Shown: positions 6,823 to 48,416 of the stretch, piece after piece
Numbering within the stretch: the first letter of the stretch is position 1
Layout of the letters: every line of letters starts with the position of its first letter
Sequence record: NZ_CP092111.1
Length of the DNA: 64,000 bases
Reading direction: 5' to 3' (one strand)
Source: a plasmid
The notes under the pieces: generated by a model
Told to the model about the DNA's origin: nothing
Database searches by the model: none
What the model saw: only the letters and a program-made list of their open reading frames with translations
Made by a program: the position numbers and the translations under genes

Positions 6823-7035
6823 ATGAATATGTGTGGAATAACTGACTGGGGAAGTGCATTTTATGCTTTCGTTGAGACGACTCAAAAGCATAATTTACCC
6901 TTCCCGGAGGATGCAGCTGATTGGAGTACGGCCAAGTTGATAGCCGAAATAGAGAGGATAAACAAGGGGGAGATGGGGTTGTTAAAGAGATCCAGGCGAC
7001 TGAGGCAATCCAACAGGAAGGAGAGAAAAGCATAA
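6823..7035 (+). CDS. hypothetical small protein (70 aa)
   Basis: RBS GGAAAGGAG upstream. Confidence 0.4.
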
Positions 7036-36469: not shown

Positions 36470-37200
36470 AGACAGAGCCGGCTGAAAGGAACCGGCTCTT
36501 TTTTGCAGCCAGAGAGACAACGGGCCGCCCTGGCAGCTGAAGGAGATCCGCGGCCGTCGGTTCCGATGCAGCGCCGGCTTTTTTTTGTGTCCTGGCCAAG
36601 CCGGGCCGCCCTGATAGCTGAAGGAGATCCGTGGCCGTCGGTTCCGTGCGGTTCCAGAAGGAGAGCATCTGAAGGAGAAAACGCCCCGCGTTTACGGGGC
36701 GATTGGGAAAGCACCGGCAGCGCCGCGCCATGAAATCTCTGCGTCTCATCGAAGCTGCGGGGCAGCCGGATTCCGGAGCCGATCAGGCGCCGGCTTTTTT
36801 TGTGTCCTGGCCAAGCCGGGCCGCTCTGGTAGCTGAAGGAGATCCGCGGCCGTCGGTTCCGTGCGGTTCCAGAAGGAGAGCATCTGAAGGAGAAAACGCC
36901 CCGCGTTTACGGGGCGATTGGGAAAGCACCGGCAGCGCGCCGCGTCGTGAAATCTCCGCGTCTCATCGAAGCTGCGGGGCAGCCGGATTCCGGAGCCGAC
37001 CAGGCGCCGGCTTTTTTTGTGTCCTGGCCAAGCCGGGCCGCCCTGGCTGCTGAAGGAGCTCCGCTCAGACCTTGCAGCTGCATCAGCACATGACGAGTTG
37101 CTTAGAGCGAAGAGAGAAAGAGCGCGCCGCGCTTACCATGGTGCTTAGGAGCCGCTGTAGCTGCAGGTGATCCAGAGCCGATAGAAAGGAACCGGCTCTT
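36470..37200. repeat. GC-rich composite hairpin repeat locus (A-type), ~3 units
   Basis: Units beginning GAAAACGCCCCGCGTTTACGGGGCGATTGGGAAAGCACCGGCAGCG at ~36680 and ~36895. Confidence 0.8.
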
Positions 37201-38168: not shown

Positions 38169-38414
38169 TCACTCAGGTTTCTTGTAATAAAACTTGGAGC
38201 TATCAGAGATTAAGGTGTTACTTACTCTACGGATTGTTTCCGAATTTCTTTGAAATTTATTAAAAGGGGTATTGTCGATTTTATACTTTTTTCTCAATTC
38301 TTTAATCTTACCGGCGATTATAAAAAGGTCATCTTCCTTCAAATTTGCAATATCACATAATATTTCGAGATATAGTTTTTCGGTCATTTTTAATTTCACC
38401 ATCCTGCTCGTCAT
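38169..38414 (-). CDS. hypothetical protein (81 aa)
   Basis: Start codon overlaps the stop of the upstream gene (ATGA) in the operon. Confidence 0.45.
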   Translation of the reverse strand: MTSRMVKLKMTEKLYLEILCDIANLKEDDLFIIAGKIKELRKKYKIDNTPFNKFQRNSETIRRVSNTLISDSSKFYYKKPE

Positions 38415-39187
38415 TTTGTTTTATCAACAAAATCAAAAATGCTTTGATCAAGAGGCTTTTCCCCTTGCCCTTGAAACAGCCAATTTTTTGTTTCGCGGTT
38501 ATATTCCCAACCAGCTTTTTTTAAAGCCGCGCTTAATTGCTCTAAGTTAATGCTTGGTATCTTTTTAGCAATGCTTGCTAATGTTATACCTGGTTGTCTG
38601 GTTGCGGAGAGAACTTCACGTAAGGTTGGGTTTTCACCTATATTGATTGAATTTAGTTCACTCAACTCTTTATGCCATTTCTTTATATCCGATCTGTCGA
38701 ACCCTTCCTGGGTTAGAGTAGAAGGGATTTCATTAGGGGTATCCAAATAATATTGCAACTGTTTTAACGCTTCGGGTAGGGGACCGAAACTGTGTATTGT
38801 TTTGTGTCTTTGCCCTTTCCCTGGGACTGTCACGCCTTTTTTAATGTACACATAAATTTTCCCTTGTTTTTTTAATTTGACTAAGAAGCCGCTCTTTTTA
38901 AAGTCTGTCGGAGTGGCGTTACTCTTCGAAGCATATCTATGATTTACTTTGTTTCTGTCAATTTTGTCTTTCTGTAAATAAGCTTCTAAATCAGACTTTA
39001 GGTAACGATCAGCAATAGCTTGGATTTCTCCCTTATGCACTCTGTTATAAAATGTCACATGAGAAATGTTCATGTATGCCGCAGCCGCTTTGGGATCAAG
39101 GAGTTGCTCGGAGAGGTAATTTCTTATTTTCTGTTCTTTTTCCTTATCAGAAATGGGTTCATTTGCGATTTTTATTATCTCGTACAT
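38411..39187 (-). CDS. HTH DNA-binding protein (~258 aa)
   Basis: N-terminal LLDPKAAAAYMNISHVTFYNRVHKGEI is HTH-like. ATG at 39187 after GGAGG. First gene behind operator copy a. Confidence 0.5.
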   Translation of the reverse strand: MYEIIKIANEPISDKEKEQKIRNYLSEQLLDPKAAAAYMNISHVTFYNRVHKGEIQAIADRYLKSDLEAYLQKDKIDRNKVNHRYASKSNATPTDFKKSGFLVKLKKQGKIYVYIKKGVTVPGKGQRHKTIHSFGPLPEALKQLQYYLDTPNEIPSTLTQEGFDRSDIKKWHKELSELNSINIGENPTLREVLSATRQPGITLASIAKKIPSINLEQLSAALKKAGWEYNRETKNWLFQGQGEKPLDQSIFDFVDKTK

Positions 39188-39323
39188 AGTAAACCTCCAC
39201 ATTGTTTGGGTATTGTTTCTCTAATTTTCCGTCCTAAACCCTAATAATATCCTCTTATTCTGAATGTTGAAAGTTCCAAAGGGAGGATGCGGGCAAGACA
39301 TAAGAGAGAACTTTCCCTTGTGT

Positions 39324-39370
39324 TAAGTATAACATATGCTATAGTAATTGTATAGCATATGTTATACAAA
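39324..39370. promoter_or_regulatory. Palindromic operator/promoter element, copy a (TATAACATATGCTATA-n7-TATAGCATATGTTATA)
   Basis: Perfect 16-bp inverted repeat. Upstream of the - strand operon 39187..37311. Confidence 0.7.
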
Positions 39371-39371
39371 A

Positions 39372-40058
39372 TTAGTGAAGGTTCGACATTGCTTTTGAAA
39401 TTTCCTTATCAGTTGCACGTATAACGGATTCAACAAACTTTTCACAATGTCTTTCGTCCGAAAAAGAACGGCTATCGAAGTTTATATTTAACGTATATGA
39501 AAACTGTTTTTGATTTACCTTGTAAATCAGAGTTGTTACACATTCATAATTACAAATATCTTCGGTCTTATCATATTCCAGCTCCATATCATCGTACTGA
39601 GATTTAATACATTCGTCCGCAGTGTGAATCTGCCGCTCCTTTATATACTCACAAGCAATAGCTTCTATGACATGATGTATAGTCCGTTTGACAGCTGAAA
39701 GATAAAGGTCACAGTGAACGGATGGGTTTTTAACGGTTGTTATAAAAGTTGGGTGAGCATGCGTTTGAGCCGCTATTTCTGAGTGGATGATATCCTTGAA
39801 TTCAGTTTCTGCTATACCTGCAACTTCATCCAATGTCAGGAAATCAAGCGTTTGAGAATGGTCACTATTGTTTAAAAACATATTCTTATTTTTTCTCACC
39901 TCGATGCTGAGTGAAGCTAACGCATAATAGCGCATCTGCTGCTGAACACGATCACCTAGACATGCCATAATTTTTTCTTTGTTTTCTTGAGTGGCAGGCA
40001 AACCATTGCTTTCTAATACTGCCGAAAGGTCTTCTGCTTTAAGTTTTGTTAATAACAT
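39372..40058 (-). CDS. hypothetical protein (228 aa)
   Basis: Second gene of the operon driven from operator copy b. A 10-bp-stem hairpin (40093-40124) lies in the intercistronic gap. Confidence 0.5.
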   Translation of the reverse strand: MLLTKLKAEDLSAVLESNGLPATQENKEKIMACLGDRVQQQMRYYALASLSIEVRKNKNMFLNNSDHSQTLDFLTLDEVAGIAETEFKDIIHSEIAAQTHAHPTFITTVKNPSVHCDLYLSAVKRTIHHVIEAIACEYIKERQIHTADECIKSQYDDMELEYDKTEDICNYECVTTLIYKVNQKQFSYTLNINFDSRSFSDERHCEKFVESVIRATDKEISKAMSNLH

Positions 40059-40132
40059 AAGAACAGCTCCTTATTTTCGATTATGGAGAGCATTCACGCG
40101 GGGAATGAACCACGCGTGAATGCAACTAAGCA

Positions 40133-40333
40133 TTAATCATTAATAATGGTGCCGCAAAATATATGAATTCGATTATTGGTGTGCTGGATCATTCTGACTT
40201 GGACATCCTCTTGTTTAGAGATCGAAAGGTTTTTAGCTTTCTTAAAGACGCTTGCAATGCTAATTGGGCTTTCGATTGTTTCCTCCAATTGATCTTTTAC
40301 AAACAAATTTGCTTCGAAAACTCTTGTTTTCAT
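40133..40333 (-). CDS. hypothetical small protein (66 aa)
   Basis: First gene behind operator copy b. RBS GGAGCGG. Confidence 0.45.
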   Translation of the reverse strand: MKTRVFEANLFVKDQLEETIESPISIASVFKKAKNLSISKQEDVQVRMIQHTNNRIHIFCGTIIND

Positions 40334-40388
40334 CTGAACCGCTCCTTTTCAAATTTATTGTGTGAATGTCACCATCATCTGATGACAA

Positions 40389-40436
40389 TTCAAGTATAAC
40401 ATATGCTTTACTGATATTAAAGCATATGTTAGAAAT
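40389..40436. promoter_or_regulatory. Palindromic operator/promoter element, copy b
   Basis: TATAACATATGCTTTA-ctgatat-TAAAGCATATGTTAGA. Followed on the - strand by the conserved leader TGTCATCAGATGATGGTGACATTCACACAATAAATTT. Confidence 0.7.
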
Positions 40437-40438
40437 GT

Positions 40439-40762
40439 TTATTTATCTTTTTGATATAACGTGTAACCGCATTTGCAAAACTCAGCTATTTGTACAGGTG
40501 ACAACCCGATTGTTTCGCCCTGATCGTTGACTGATGCGACAAAAAATGGGCCGTGGATACAATGTGTCTTACCGTTTTCAGTAATTTTGCAATAGTATTG
40601 GGAATTGTAGAAGCCCTCTTCGTCGAACCAAATGTCAATGTTATTATTGAGTCTCAAACATTCGAGGTTATCGGCTCCTACAAGATTTTGCCGTTCTTCA
40701 AGGGTTTGCGGCAGTTCAACAAATCTGTTGTTCTGATGATCAAACAAAATGATTTTTTCCAT
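40439..40762 (-). CDS. hypothetical protein (~107 aa)
   Basis: ATG at 40762 (MEKIILF...) after AAAGGAAG. Cys-rich C-terminus (CKCGY). Confidence 0.5.
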   Translation of the reverse strand: MEKIILFDHQNNRFVELPQTLEERQNLVGADNLECLRLNNNIDIWFDEEGFYNSQYYCKITENGKTHCIHGPFFVASVNDQGETIGLSPVQIAEFCKCGYTLYQKDK

Positions 40763-40818
40763 AAAACTACTTCCTTTCAAATTTTATTGTGTGAATGTCA
40801 CCATCACCTGATGATAAT

Positions 40819-40866
40819 TTAAGTATAACATATTCTTTACCGATAGTAAAGCATATGTTATAAATT
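40819..40866. promoter_or_regulatory. Palindromic operator/promoter element, copy c
   Basis: TATAACATATTCTTTAC-cgata-GTAAAGCATATGTTATA plus conserved leader. Confidence 0.7.
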
Positions 40867-41530
40867 ATTTTTTGAAATTTCCATCCGGCACTCTCAGCTG
40901 ACAGATAACATGGTTTACGAATTCTTGGAAAGTACCTTCGCTACTTAGATCATGACCTTTTATGTTAGTCATAACGGCGTACCATTTTCCGCTCTTAGGG
41001 AAATAAACATTGTTAATCATATTAAAAGGATCGTCATTCTTTTCAAAGTTTTTTCCTAACATTTGAGAAGGTTTTACAAAGGATACATTACATTCTTCGT
41101 CCACATACTTATTGATCGAGTTAAAGTATCTTTTTGCAATGACTTTAATCAGGTAACAAATAGTTTCTGCCGTTTCAAAAAAAGGGGGTTCCGTTATGGA
41201 ATCGAATTGCATCTCAGAAAGAAATTCTATAGTTGCAGTGAAAGAAAAACTGCCTTTAGTTCTCTCTTCCGCTATTTCAGTGAACTCATTAAGAGTAATC
41301 AACTTCGCTCTCTTCCGATACACATCATCAGAAGTAAAAACTATTTTGTTATCCTCGATGTGATTCAGCAAAGTTTCAAAGGCATCGTGCCGAATCGTTT
41401 CTTGAATTTCTGCTGTGTCCAACTCTTGAAAGATCAATCTTATGTTTTCCTTAGTTGCCGGTATGTTGTTTCTTCGAAGAGCTTCAATAAAATCCGCTTG
41501 TGCCAGTGTGACCTGAAACGTAAAATTCAT
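40865..41530 (-). CDS. hypothetical protein (221 aa)
   Basis: Behind operator copy d and its leader. Confidence 0.5.
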   Translation of the reverse strand: MNFTFQVTLAQADFIEALRRNNIPATKENIRLIFQELDTAEIQETIRHDAFETLLNHIEDNKIVFTSDDVYRKRAKLITLNEFTEIAEERTKGSFSFTATIEFLSEMQFDSITEPPFFETAETICYLIKVIAKRYFNSINKYVDEECNVSFVKPSQMLGKNFEKNDDPFNMINNVYFPKSGKWYAVMTNIKGHDLSSEGTFQEFVNHVICQLRVPDGNFKK

Positions 41531-41586
41531 TTTAATTCTCCTTTACAAAATTTATTGTGTGAATGCCGCCATCACCTGATGACAAT

Positions 41587-41635
41587 TTAAGTATAACATA
41601 TGCTTTATATAAGGTAAAGCATATGTTATACATTT
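41587..41635. promoter_or_regulatory. Palindromic operator/promoter element, copy d
   Basis: TATAACATATGCTTTA-tataag-GTAAAGCATATGTTATA. Confidence 0.7.
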
Positions 41636-41677
41636 TTTTGTTTTGATAAAATCATTCCTTTTCTTTATAATGAAATT

Positions 41678-41762
41678 AATGATTTGTAAGGACTTTACCT
41701 CCTTAACAAATTTATTGTGTGAATAGGTTGCGGTGTGCGGAAACATGCCGCAACTCTTTTCT
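41678..41762 (+). ncRNA. Candidate ~85-nt small RNA (or degenerate leader remnant): consensus sigma-A promoter, leader-complementary core, intrinsic terminator
   Basis: TTGATA (41643-41648) - 17 nt - TATAAT (41666-41671). Transcript would contain AAATTTATTGTGTGAA, which is perfectly complementary to the TTCACACAATAAATTT leader shared by the copy b-f mRNAs, plus a CCUCCUU anti-SD-like stretch. Ends with hairpin GTTGCGG-n14-CCGCAAC + TCTTTTCT (41727-41762). Confidence 0.35.
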
Positions 41763-41802
41763 ATTATATGCTTTACTATAATTAAAGAATATGTTAGAAT
41801 TT
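41757..41802. promoter_or_regulatory. Palindromic operator/promoter element, copy e (degenerate)
   Basis: TTCTATTATATGCTTTAC-n7-TAAAGAATATGTTAGAAT, followed on the + strand by the leader variant ...GATGGTTTTCACACAATAAATC. Confidence 0.55.
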
Positions 41803-41854
41803 AATTACCGTCAGTTGATGGTTTTCACACAATAAATCTTTTGGAGGGGTTAAA

Positions 41855-42100
41855 TTGTTACCACATATCAGGAAAATGAGTCTTGTTCATGATTATCTTT
41901 ATAATAATCGTGAAGTAGCTGAAAGATCGAATGATGGGAAGGATCAAGTGAGAGACCGTTTTATCATTGTTACTACAGCAGAGGATCTCTTTGCTGAAGA
42001 AATACCCGCTGAAGAACATTATCTATATTCAGATTTTAATGAAGTGGTAAGTGAACTGCGAAACACGGTAAATGATATGAAAGCTTTAAGGGAATTTTAG
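41855..42100 (+). CDS. hypothetical protein (81 aa)
   Basis: TTG start after GGAGGGG. Behind operator copy e. Confidence 0.45.
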   Translation: MLPHIRKMSLVHDYLYNNREVAERSNDGKDQVRDRFIIVTTAEDLFAEEIPAEEHYLYSDFNEVVSELRNTVNDMKALREF

Positions 42101-42107
42101 AATATTT

Positions 42108-42155
42108 TTTCTAACATATGCTTTACTATCAGTAAAGCATATGTTATACTTAAAT
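42108..42155. promoter_or_regulatory. Palindromic operator/promoter element, copy f
   Basis: TCTAACATATGCTTTACT-atc-AGTAAAGCATATGTTATA, then leader TGTCATCAGGTGATGGTGGCATTCACACAATAAATTTGAAGGG. Confidence 0.7.
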
Positions 42156-42207
42156 TGTCATCAGGTGATGGTGGCATTCACACAATAAATTTGAAGGGAT
42201 GAAGAAA

Positions 42208-42663: not shown

Positions 42664-42760
42664 AAGAAAAAAATTTAACCAATAGGTTCACAAAGTAAAC
42701 CAAATTGTTTACTTTGTGAACTGAATGGTGTAAAATTAAGGTAAAGAAGGAGGTAGTAAT

Positions 42761-46129: not shown

Positions 46130-47800
46130 CGGCGTCAGCTAGCAATCTGAAGGCGAAAAACGCTTCGCGTTTACGGAGCGATCGGGAGAGTGCTGGATGC
46201 GCCTCTCCTATAAAATCTCCGCGACTCATCACAAGTTCGGGAGCAACCGGATTCCGGAGCCGGCCAGGCGCCGGCTTTTTTGTGGCCAGGTCAGGCAACG
46301 GATCGCCCTGGCTGTTGAAGGAGATACGCGGCCGCCGGTCCCGATATGGCGCCTGCAGGAGAGCATAGAAGGCGAAAACGCTTCGCGTTTACGGGGCGAT
46401 CTGGTCTGCATGGGCAGCACCGCGCCATGAAATCTCTGTGTCACATCGAAGCTGCGGGGCAGCCGGATTCCGGAGCCGATCAGGCGCCGGCTTTTTTTGT
46501 GTCCTGGCCAGACGGGCCGCCCTGGTAGCTGAAGGAGCTCCGCGGCCGTCGGTTCCGATGCGGCGCCAGCAGGAGAGCGTCTGAAGGTGAAAACACACCG
46601 CGTTTACGGGGCGATCTGGTCTGCACCGGCAGCGCCGCGTCGTGAAATCTCCGCGGCTCATCGAAGCTGCGGAGGAAACCGGATTCCGGAGCCGGCCAGG
46701 TGCCGGCTTTTTTTGTGTCCAGAGCAGGAAACGGGCCGCCCTGGTAGCTGAAGGAGCTCCGCGGCCGTCGGTTCCGATGCGGCGCCAGCAGGAGAGCGTC
46801 TGAAGGTGAAAACACACCGCGTTTACGGGGCGATCTGGTCTGCACCGGCAGCGCCGCGTCGTGAAATCTCCGCGGCTCATCGAAGCTGCGGAGGAAACCG
46901 GATTCCGGAGCCGGCCAGGTGCCGGCTTTTTTTGTGTCCAGAGCAGGAAACGGGCCGCCCTGGCTGCTGAAGGAGATCCGCGGCCGTCGGTCCCGATATG
47001 GCGCCAGCAGGAGAGCATAGAAGGCGAAAACGCCCCGCGTTTACGAAGCGATCGGGAGTATACCGGCAGCGCCGCATCGTGAAATCTCCGCGGCTCATCG
47101 AAGCTGCGGGCAACCGAATTTGGGAACCGGCCAGGCGCAGGCTTTTTTGTGGCCAGGTCAGGCAACGGATCGCCCTGGCTGCTGAAGGAGATCCGCGGCC
47201 GCCGGTCCCGATATGGCGCCAGCAGGAGAGCATCTGAAGGCGAAAACGCCCCGCGTTTACGGGGCGATCGGGAGAGCATCTGCAGCGCGCCGCGCCATGA
47301 AATCTCTGCGGCTCATCGAAGCTGCGGGGGCTGCCAGATTCCGGAGCCGACCAGGCGCCGGCTTTTTGTGTTCTGGCCAGGACGGAACGCCCTGGCTGCA
47401 GCTGAAGGATATCCGCATCCGACGGCCCTAATACGGCGCCAGCAGGAGAGCGTCTGAAGGCAAAACGCCCCGCGTTTACGGGGCGATCGGGAGAGCATCT
47501 GCAGCGCGCCGCGCCATGAAATCTCTGCGGCTCATCGAAGCTGCGGGGGCTGCCAGATTCCGGAGCCGACCAGGCGCTGGTTTTTTGTGTCCAGGGCAAG
47601 CTACGGGACGCCCTGGTTGCAGCTGAAGGATATCCGCATCCGACGGCCCTAATACGGCGCCAGCAGGAGAGCGTTGAAGGCAAAACGCCCCGCGTTTACG
47701 GGGCGATCAGGGATGCACCGGCAGCGCCGCCTCATGAAATCTCTGCGGCTCATCGAAGCTGCGGGGCATCCGGATTCCGGAACCGGCCGGTCGCCTGCAA
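46130..47800. repeat. GC-rich composite hairpin repeat locus (A-type), ~7.5 tandem units of ~218 bp; largest array
   Basis: GAAAACGC(C/T)(C/T)CGCGTTTACGG unit starts at ~46155, 46375, 46590, 46810, 47030, 47243, 47463, 47688. Each unit carries three hairpins, including the terminator-like AGCCGGC-CAGGC-GCCGGCT+T6. Confidence 0.85.
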
Positions 47801-48416
47801 GTTTCTAAAAGCAAAGGTAACTGGTGTCGTTAGCAAGCATGCTTTCATCGTCTGGGGTTATGAATAGAAGTTGAGAGGATACTGCACAGTGATAAAAAGT
47901 ATCAAATACCATTTAATTAATTTGAAATCATTTCTCAGGGGTTTACAGGGTAATTGGAGTGTTGAGCCTGGTATTGCGGTGAAGTTCGGAGGAACATCCT
48001 GGGGAGCTGTATTAAGTACCATTTGAGTTTTTGATAAAAAAGCGAATTTATGTTATAATAACAGAACAATTAGTTAAACGAAAAAACAGAGAGACGTTCA
48101 AGTAACTTGGCTGCAGCTTTTACCCTACATTAAACGGTCAGGTTTAATGTTAGCCAGTTCTTGAAAGACCCTCTATTCCTATCTTGCTATTTTTATAATT
48201 CTTTAAGGAAGCAGAAAATTAATAAGAAGAGTCTGCCTAGAACGACAAACCATTCTAAGGTCTTCTTGATTTTCTCGCTTCTTTTTTTTATGTATGAAAA
48301 GAATTTTTTCACTGGCCTCCCCCCTTTACTGCTTGATCAGCTGCGGGATTTAGAGCAGTTTTAATTAGCCTCTCTACCGTCTGCTTTATTTCTCATAAAT
48401 AAACGAGGTGGAATCA

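Follow-up and report, generated by a model that had tools for sequence, protein, structure and literature searches.

FinP is a constitutively produced plasmid RNA of about 80 nt that is found in F-like plasmids, where FinO serves as its chaperone, and it comprises two stem-loops joined by a single-stranded spacer. It is complementary to the 5′ UTR of traJ, including the ribosome-binding site, and silences transfer-related genes in established cells. To our knowledge, brief on/off control of establishment genes is known in few systems: the single-stranded DNA (ssDNA) promoters of F-like plasmids and Reg576 of plasmid p576. In p576 (Reg576, or EGeRS2), a repressor that controls its own gene acts with an operator at a strong sigma-A promoter, so that expression after transfer is transient (PMC6294495, PMC8708921), and the control of the establishment genes of pLS20 is still unresolved (PMC8708921). 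No RNA regulator is described in the papers on p576 and pLS20 (PMC6294495, PMC8708921), nor did a search of the literature yield a paper describing the RNA that is the subject of this work or any RNA regulator of establishment genes.

The DNA analyzed here, referred to as the window (the whole stretch of 64,000 nucleotides), is a conjugative plasmid of ~65 kb of the B. velezensis/amyloliquefaciens type. The region at 39.2–42.7 kb shares 99.9% identity with the 67-kb plasmid NZ_CP116015.1 of B. velezensis and 98.4% with a B. amyloliquefaciens plasmid of 65 kb, and no phage match was found for it. The annotated neighbors are conjugation genes, including those for a VirB4-like ATPase and a lytic transglycosylase/C40 peptidase, followed by genes for NucA/NucB, HTH proteins, DUF3846 and RadC-like JAB proteins and many small genes of unknown function. 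This layout resembles the “establishment” regions of p576 and pLS20, as does the arrangement of several small operons that adjoin the conjugation operon and have one common upstream regulatory sequence (PMC6294495, PMC8708921). Within this region is a short plasmid gene, here called S, which on balance appears, from its sequence, to specify a non-coding RNA of ~85 nt that probably acts as a post-transcriptional repressor of the multi-operon regulon adjoining the conjugation genes.

Three plasmid lineages were compared. Lineage A comprises the window and all copies from the B. amyloliquefaciens group, among which S is identical; lineage B comprises B. subtilis plasmids (L002, L026 and L027), further variants of which were obtained with the 155-aa HTH protein as query; and lineage C comprises the 30–37-kb plasmids of B. 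altitudinis, B. safensis and JNUCC-24, which were reached by tblastn with the HTH_17 protein described below.

Operators and Leaders of the Regulon

Six palindromic operators are located between 39.3 and 42.2 kb: a (about 39327–39367), b (about 40394–40431), c (about 40823–40862), d (41591–41631), e (about 41766–41799) and f (about 42109–42146). Their inverted arms are 17 bp in length (AACATATGCTTTA...TAAAGCATATGTT) and cover the stretch from −35 to −10 at six promoters (39323–42195). Five of the operators (b–f) are within full modules, the order of which is a palindrome over the promoter, a 5′ hairpin, a box, a Shine-Dalgarno sequence and the gene. The module promoters, exemplified by promoter d, read TTTACY-17-TATACT with an upstream TG, and the palindrome overlaps their −35 and −10 hexamers. 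The 5′ hairpin of the leader, GUCAUC-AGGU-GAUGGC, is at the predicted transcript start. The box, TTCACACAATAAAT(TT), is CA-rich, single-stranded (unpaired probability 0.50–0.73) and common to the five operon leaders b–f. Allowing up to two mismatches, TTCACACAATAAAT has six sites compared with 1.4 expected (five exact, and copy c with one mismatch); five are in leaders b–f, and the other is the complement inside S.

In leader b, the target box is at 40353–40366 (− strand) and belongs to a 66-aa gene (40133–40333), which is followed by a 228-aa gene. The box of leader c (40782–40795, −), which has the one mismatch, belongs to the DUF3846 gene and that of leader d (41550–41563, −) to a 221-aa gene (40865–41530). 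On the + strand, the box of leader e (41824–41837) belongs to an 81-aa gene (41855–42100) located directly 3′ of S on the same strand, and that of leader f (42177–42190) to the RadC-like JAB gene, which is followed by the 155-aa HTH gene. By analogy, operons b–f (RadC-like JAB, DUF3846 and small proteins) are probably establishment or anti-defence genes; the label “establishment regulon” rests on gene content and on the likeness to p576 and pLS20 (PMC6294495, PMC8708921). Between the JAB and 155-aa HTH genes, at 42678–42729, there is a 23-nt inverted repeat (87% complementary, 6-nt gap) that is terminator-like on the − strand only, where its tails are weak and poor in T (CTATTGGTTA); a promoter-like sequence, TTTACT-17-TAAAAT, overlaps this repeat.

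Operator a lies upstream of the gene for a 263-aa HTH_17 protein (38411–39202, −), the leader of which has no target box for S. Judged from the sequence, this protein is the obvious candidate for an autoregulated repressor acting at the palindromes; in lineage B (59% identity) and lineage C (30%), a homologue of it likewise adjoins the regulon. Seemingly, the palindromic-operator regulon has not been described before. The dual heptamer operator of EGeRS2, TTATCCCnnTTATCCC, has no match in the window with up to two mismatches; the operators here are palindromes with 17-bp arms, whereas that of p576 is a dual TTATCCC heptamer, and the candidate repressor is of the HTH_17 type, whereas that of p576 is a ribbon-helix-helix protein. 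The regulon is neither EGeRS2 nor EGeRS1.

GC-rich tandem repeats with units of about 215–220 nt are also present, at 36499–37063 (roughly three copies) and 46145–47800 (roughly eight copies), in a plasmid that is otherwise 40% GC. Each unit has a terminator-like GGCGCCGGCTTTTTT at its + strand end and AAAACGCCCCGCGTTTACGGGGCG hairpins within it, and one unit folds at −102.8 kcal/mol (z −2.2). By blastn, the repeats matched two amyloliquefaciens-group plasmids alone, and the long ORFs across them (46389–47279 and 46877–47683) are probably spurious. In character only, i.e., being GC-rich, highly structured and adjacent to the conjugation operon, they recall EGeRS1 of pLS20 (PMC8708921).

Anatomy of the S Unit

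The S unit, which comprises a promoter, a non-coding stretch of ~85 nt and a terminator, occupies 41643–41764 on the + strand, between the divergent modules d and e. The original prediction described a sigma-A promoter, TTGATA-17-TATAAT, preceding a transcript of ~85 nt with an intrinsic terminator, and both elements are present. The promoter, P_S, has its −35 hexamer (TTGATA) at 41643–41648 and, after a spacer of 17 nt, its −10 hexamer (TATAAT) at 41666–41671; with 11 of the 12 consensus positions, it is the top-scoring promoter within 39–43 kb. Sites of this quality number four in the 64-kb window (both strands), compared with 1.6 ± 1.2 in dinucleotide shuffles. No operator overlaps P_S: operator d ends 11 bp before its −35 hexamer. 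P_S is thus predicted to be an independent, near-consensus sigma-A promoter on the strand of S.

Control of P_S by the repressor was considered: the distance from the palindrome centre to the −35 hexamer shifts by 4 bp between lineages A and B, so that P_S does not seem to be phased to the operator and its phased activation is unlikely. An ssDNA promoter of the Frpo type was also considered, by inspection: there is no same-strand segment complementary to P_S, and in a hairpin formed by the operator the −35 and −10 hexamers would fall on opposite sides of one stem. A reading of the palindromes or of S as ssi was set aside on geometry, by inspection only.

The predicted S RNA extends from about 41678, i.e., 7 nt past the −10 hexamer, to about 41762, inside the U tract. 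The 83-nt stretch at 41680–41762 has a folding energy of −29.2 kcal/mol (z = −5.1 compared with shuffles) and forms two hairpins, one at the 5′ end and one at the terminator, which are joined by a single-stranded linker. The loop and 3′ arm of the 5′ hairpin (41681–41712) bear a run, ACCUCCUU (ACCTCCTT), at 41697–41704, which is complementary to the Shine-Dalgarno sequences of the leaders and corresponds to the CCUCCUU anti-Shine-Dalgarno-like run noted previously. The seed, AAAUUUAUUGUGUGAA (41708–41723), is complementary to the leader box, draws on both the linker and the 3′ arm of the 5′ hairpin, and is mostly single-stranded; its 11-nt core, the linker UAUUGUGUGAA (41713–41723), has a mean unpaired probability of 0.71 in lineage A, 0.80 in lineage B and 0.44 in lineage C. 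The terminator, GGTTGCGGTGTG-CGGAAA-CATGCCGCAACT (41726–41755), has 12 pairs and is followed by CTTTTCT; its U tract (41756–41764) is interrupted in lineage A (CUCUUUUCU). This intrinsic terminator is predicted to bound a short, non-coding S transcript, of which there is a single gene copy per plasmid.

On reading the S sequences, no ORF in S was found to be conserved between lineages. Two candidate peptides were rejected: a + strand ORF of 15 codons, which has no Shine-Dalgarno sequence and is missing from lineages B and C, and a − strand ORF of nine codons, which is present in lineage B alone. The ORF at 41552–41746 (−), previously suspected of being spurious, crosses operator d and leader d, and there is no RefSeq CDS at this position in the 99.9%-identical plasmid.

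A second promoter with 11 of 12 consensus positions and the same hexamers as P_S (TTGATA-17-TATAAT) was observed at 48031–48059 (+), just 3′ of the GC-rich repeats. The ORF list to 48000 has no + strand ORF of at least 50 aa just downstream of it, and there is no ORF of at least 100 aa around it, between 47683 and 49267. This promoter might drive another non-coding RNA or a long leader.

Predicted Pairing of S with the Leaders

S had been reported to carry the exact complement of the leader stretch of copies b–f. This is correct for leaders b, d and f, for which the complementarity is exact over 16 nt, but not for leaders e and c, for which it extends over 14 nt and 13 nt, respectively. When the core of S was scanned for duplex formation against 12,790 windows of 50 nt (both strands), leaders b–f occupied ranks 2–6, directly after the complement of S itself, and are thus the best five targets in the window. 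Their duplex energies ranged from −24.5 to −31.2 kcal/mol (b, −31.2; c, −24.5; d, −30.2; e, −26.0; f, −27.1), compared with −21.2 kcal/mol for the next window and a background of −7.8 ± 2.8 kcal/mol. Net binding by cofold of S with the leaders, which takes the cost of unfolding into account, was −12.6 to −21.0 kcal/mol, compared with −5 to −8.5 kcal/mol for shuffled S. In all of the predicted complexes, the S terminator and the 5′ hairpin of the mRNA remain folded, and the box and the Shine-Dalgarno sequence are paired with S.

Taking into consideration the top-ranked leader duplexes, the net binding, and the mostly unpaired state of both the seed and the boxes, the observation on S is confirmed: S is predicted to have an accessible seed complementary to several mRNAs that are encoded elsewhere. 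S (41678–41762) overlaps none of the five target leaders, as a cis-encoded antisense RNA would; what lies opposite S is only a leader-like remnant without an ORF.

Conservation of S among Plasmid Lineages

Homologues of S occupy the same intergenic position in both of the diverged lineages, B and C, despite flanking proteins that are only 56–63% identical between lineages A and B and 30–53% identical between lineages A and C. All three lineages retain the promoter on the S strand, the 5′ hairpin, the seed, and the terminator with its U run. The equivalent of P_S is TTGAAA-17-TATAAT in lineage B and TTGTAA-17-TATATT, with an extended −10 TG, in lineage C, the spacing being 17 nt in all three. 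Between lineages A and B, the −35 hexamers are identical at five of six positions (83%) and the −10 hexamers at all six (100%), while the spacer between them is 59% identical and constant in length. Identity is 92% in the seed but only 36% in the 5′ arm and loop of the first hairpin of S, which include a 6-nt indel and still pair. A 5′ hairpin is present in lineages B and C despite largely different sequence, and conservation between lineages A and B is the pattern expected of an RNA gene.

In the terminator helix, 33 of 33 aligned cells pair on the S strand. Two pairs have changed on both sides (three if one alignment gap is corrected) and three have changed via G·U, and lineage B holds a further G-C/G·U polymorphism in this helix. 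All of the wobbles are on the S strand; read from the other strand, each would become an A·C mismatch. For lineages A and B, respective hairpin energies are −17.3 and −16.1 kcal/mol on the S strand, compared with −12.8 and −12.3 kcal/mol on the opposite strand, a difference of about 4 kcal/mol in favor of the S strand. In a shuffle control with the five distinct S sequences from the three lineages, 67 of 500 shuffles reached the observed covariation score; given so few sequences and a control that is not significant, the covariation is suggestive only.

The seed changes together with its targets. In lineage B, all leaders read TTCACACAATACAT and S reads AUGUAUUGUGUGAA: the box carries an A to C change, and S carries the corresponding G. 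In lineage C, both the operator palindrome and the box differ, the latter being CACACACAUU in four leaders, and the S of this lineage bears AAUGUGUGUG (AAUGUGUGUGAAAU) as well as UUCCCC, which can pair with Shine-Dalgarno sequences of the GGGAGG type. The cognate S is the best partner, by net binding energy, for 14 of 15 leaders, and the complementarity spans four to six leaders per lineage. Lineage C is the weaker case, with a seed that is about 44% unpaired, contiguous complementarity of 10–13 nt, and a promoter with nine of 12 consensus positions. The suggestion that S could act in trans as an antisense regulator gains support both from a unit kept in three lineages with its promoter, U-tract terminator and G·U pairs all on the S strand, and from a seed that, in each lineage, follows the box of the leaders of that lineage.

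A fourth copy of the lineage C box, UCACACACAUUCC, was observed in a B. altitudinis plasmid (L022, about 6985–7000, −), where 13 nt are complementary to that plasmid's own S. It is located inside an operon, between two genes, and has neither a promoter nor a 5′ hairpin of its own; if S acts there, its target would be an internal cistron.

Lineages A and C have almost the same loop and upper stem in the terminator (GUGCGGAAA(A)CAUGCC), while the remaining intergenic DNA has diverged; the conserved loop is UGCGGAAACAUG. These sites are at 41734–41749 in the window, at about 8148–8163 in L002 and at about 8446–8462 in L022, and the lower stem has been fully replaced between lineages of which the proteins are 30–53% identical. 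A plain terminator role does not account for a near-identical loop, which hints at a further function; this part of the hairpin may serve to bind a protein or to form a kissing contact.

The block formed by S and gene e (41548–42192 in the window) is inverted relative to the backbone in a B. subtilis plasmid (L002, 7780–8370). It is flanked by two inverted copies of the promoter-leader module, which are 93% complementary in the window, so that recombination between module copies could explain the flip in lineage B. Such recombination among module copies seems to shuffle these operons; plasmids of lineage A differ in the genes between e and the JAB gene. Despite the inversion in lineage B, the position of S relative to its flanking operators has been kept.

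Searches for Further Homologues

The DNA pattern of operator plus leader had no match in genome contigs, and its five matches in metagenomes were dismissed as chance, being in marine contigs of 25–37% GC with one box each. Single matches to the operator-only pattern, in contigs of Flavobacterium, Acholeplasmataceae and Clostridia and in one viral contig, were likewise attributed to chance. Patterns of the S core gave no match in viral contigs in one search and two in another, both inside coding sequence. With the e protein as query, the same lineage alone was returned; e homologues on B. subtilis plasmids of 136–156 kb have a different promoter and no S, and relatives of the JAB protein at 46–51% identity have unrelated upstream DNA. 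Apart from chance matches in Acinetobacter, a short leader query returned no plasmids other than the Bacillus ones already known.

S is a member of no described RNA family. At gathering thresholds, Rfam 15 gave no match anywhere in the window; with permissive filters, the best match within 41500–41900 scored 21.7 bits against a threshold of 140 bits, and all E-values were at least 0.18. A role as a countertranscript in the control of plasmid replication was rejected, as no target is a rep leader; no Rep domain occurs among the products of the targets, which are RadC-like JAB, DUF3846, HTH and proteins without a named family. A role as a type I antitoxin was rejected as well, as the products of b–f have 66–221 aa and no obvious membrane-peptide character.

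Origin of S and Alternative Explanations

The opposite strand of S reads hairpin, TTCACACAATAAAT and AAGGAGG directly downstream of operator e, i.e., the layout of a leader that lacks a gene, and S probably originated as an inverted copy of a leader. The original prediction had offered a degenerate leader copy read backwards as an alternative to a regulatory RNA; it probably holds for the origin of S and is unlikely as its present function, since the opposite strand has no ORF and its promoter is only the weak back side of an operator. The same layout could mean that S is a non-functional relic, i.e., an inverted promoter-leader duplicate minus its gene, with + strand signals that arose by accident from AT-rich DNA and the leader hairpin. 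Promoter-like sites with at least nine of 12 positions are no commoner in the region than in shuffles, and gene conversion among the paralogous repeats could keep the box in S intact and matched without selection for pairing. However, the conserved antisense promoter, the U tract and the wobbles confined to one strand would find no explanation in gene conversion. A relic should decay, whereas S persists in three lineages with proteins that are 30–63% identical, keeping its hexamers, its 17-nt spacing, a same-strand U tract, a re-invented but paired 5′ hairpin, and wobbles on the S strand only; moreover, promoters with 11 of 12 positions are rare, shuffled sequence having about 1.6 of them in 128 kb. 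That S is a relic is therefore quite improbable. More improbable still is that the functional transcript is the − strand one, originating from the back side of operator e, with the leader-like sequence serving as a long 5′ UTR or as a decoy for whatever binds the box and the + promoter only interfering with this transcription. Palindromic operators are partly symmetric promoters, and the full layout of a leader is present on the − strand; but the −10 hexamer has no invariant final T in any of the three lineages (TAGAAA, TAAAAA and TATAAA), a lack that operators b, c, d and f also show on their silent back sides, and no start codon or ORF is consistently found 3′ of the Shine-Dalgarno sequence. 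Furthermore, the hairpin has A·C mismatches on the − strand, and the gene downstream on that strand varies between lineages as a result of the inversion.

It is somewhat less improbable, but still unlikely, that S is transcribed but has its main role in cis, or a role that is not repression: as a terminated leader or attenuator feeding the co-oriented gene e, as an insulator in front of the promoter of that gene, or as an activator or stabilizer of the leader mRNAs. An operator, a leader and a gene come after S on its strand in each of the three lineages, and the interrupted U tract of lineage A (CUCUUUUCU) could allow some read-through. Against a role in cis, the gene downstream of S is equipped with a complete promoter-operator module, and in lineage C it is from another family; a read-through RNA would silence itself, because it carries the anti-box and anti-Shine-Dalgarno sequences as well as the box and Shine-Dalgarno sequence; and the complementarity reaches four to six leaders, beyond the adjacent one. 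S covers the Shine-Dalgarno sequence itself, which argues for repression, and the leaders have no strong structure sequestering this sequence that an activator could relieve. None of these three rival explanations explains all of the conserved features. In its sequence features, S looks like a selected, trans-acting antisense RNA that operates alongside a palindrome-binding repressor.

A Possible Two-Layer Shut-Off

Because P_S lies outside the operator and its distance from the operator differs by 4 bp between lineages, S would be made constitutively. The open seed of S would nucleate pairing at the open leader box; the 5′ hairpin of S would then open and the duplex would extend, the anti-Shine-Dalgarno run covering the ribosome-binding site. 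Translation would be blocked by such a duplex, and the mRNA would probably become open to RNase III and decay. The palindrome-binding repressor, probably the HTH_17 protein, the own leader of which has no box, would shut off transcription. With one promoter for S against five target promoters, the burst of unrepressed mRNA after transfer would out-titrate S; once the repressor had brought transcription of the targets under the rate at which S is made, there would be a steep drop in expression, and established cells would be cleared of leaky expression. Repressor and S together would thus form a two-layer shut-off.

We tentatively propose that this may be a third kind of establishment control, in which a palindrome-binding repressor is combined with a leader-derived sRNA that has evolved together with four to six paralogous leaders and imposes a threshold on the post-transfer burst of anti-defence and establishment genes, the near-invariant terminator loop (UGCGGAAA(A)CAUG) hinting at a dedicated RNA-binding partner, which would be a Gram-positive functional analogue of FinO; we hold this broader scheme to be possible rather than probable. 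If true, an RNA that silences a whole regulon via its shared leader would add a post-transcriptional layer to establishment control. The system is easy to test, as one gene of 85 nt faces five near-identical targets, and such an RNA could provide a handle for preventing plasmids from becoming established, or a portable repressor of multiple targets for use in Bacillus.

Comparison with Known Systems

In analogy to FinP, S is plasmid-borne, has two stem-loops and a single-stranded spacer, and is complementary to a 5′ UTR including the ribosome-binding site; it would likewise be constitutive and hold transfer-related genes off in established cells. However, FinP is cis-encoded opposite a single target, whereas S is at a separate locus and matches five paralogous leaders; furthermore, the host of S is Gram-positive, and its targets are post-transfer genes rather than the activator of a transfer operon.

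There is also a likeness to the antitoxins of type I systems such as IstR-1/tisB, OhsC/shoB and Orz/zor, in that S adjoins its target, is separately transcribed, and would pair over a short stretch with a 5′ UTR that it does not overlap. In contrast to these, S has five targets instead of one, and they encode JAB, DUF3846 and soluble-looking proteins of 66–221 aa instead of hydrophobic toxins.

The trans-encoded, base-pairing sRNAs of Firmicutes that direct C/U-rich motifs at Shine-Dalgarno sequences, e.g., RoxS/RsaE and LhrC, share with S the possession of their own promoter, a Rho-independent terminator, and an accessible pyrimidine-rich or seed region, and they target multiple mRNAs at the ribosome-binding site. 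They are chromosomal and recognize unrelated genes by short, imperfect matches, whereas the targets of S are paralogous leaders to which it is complementary over 13–17 nt plus the Shine-Dalgarno sequence, and there is no relationship between them in sequence or in Rfam. Such long complementarity can be explained by the probable derivation of the sRNA from the leader that it targets. If this is true, S would show clearly how an sRNA can arise by duplication of a 5′ UTR.
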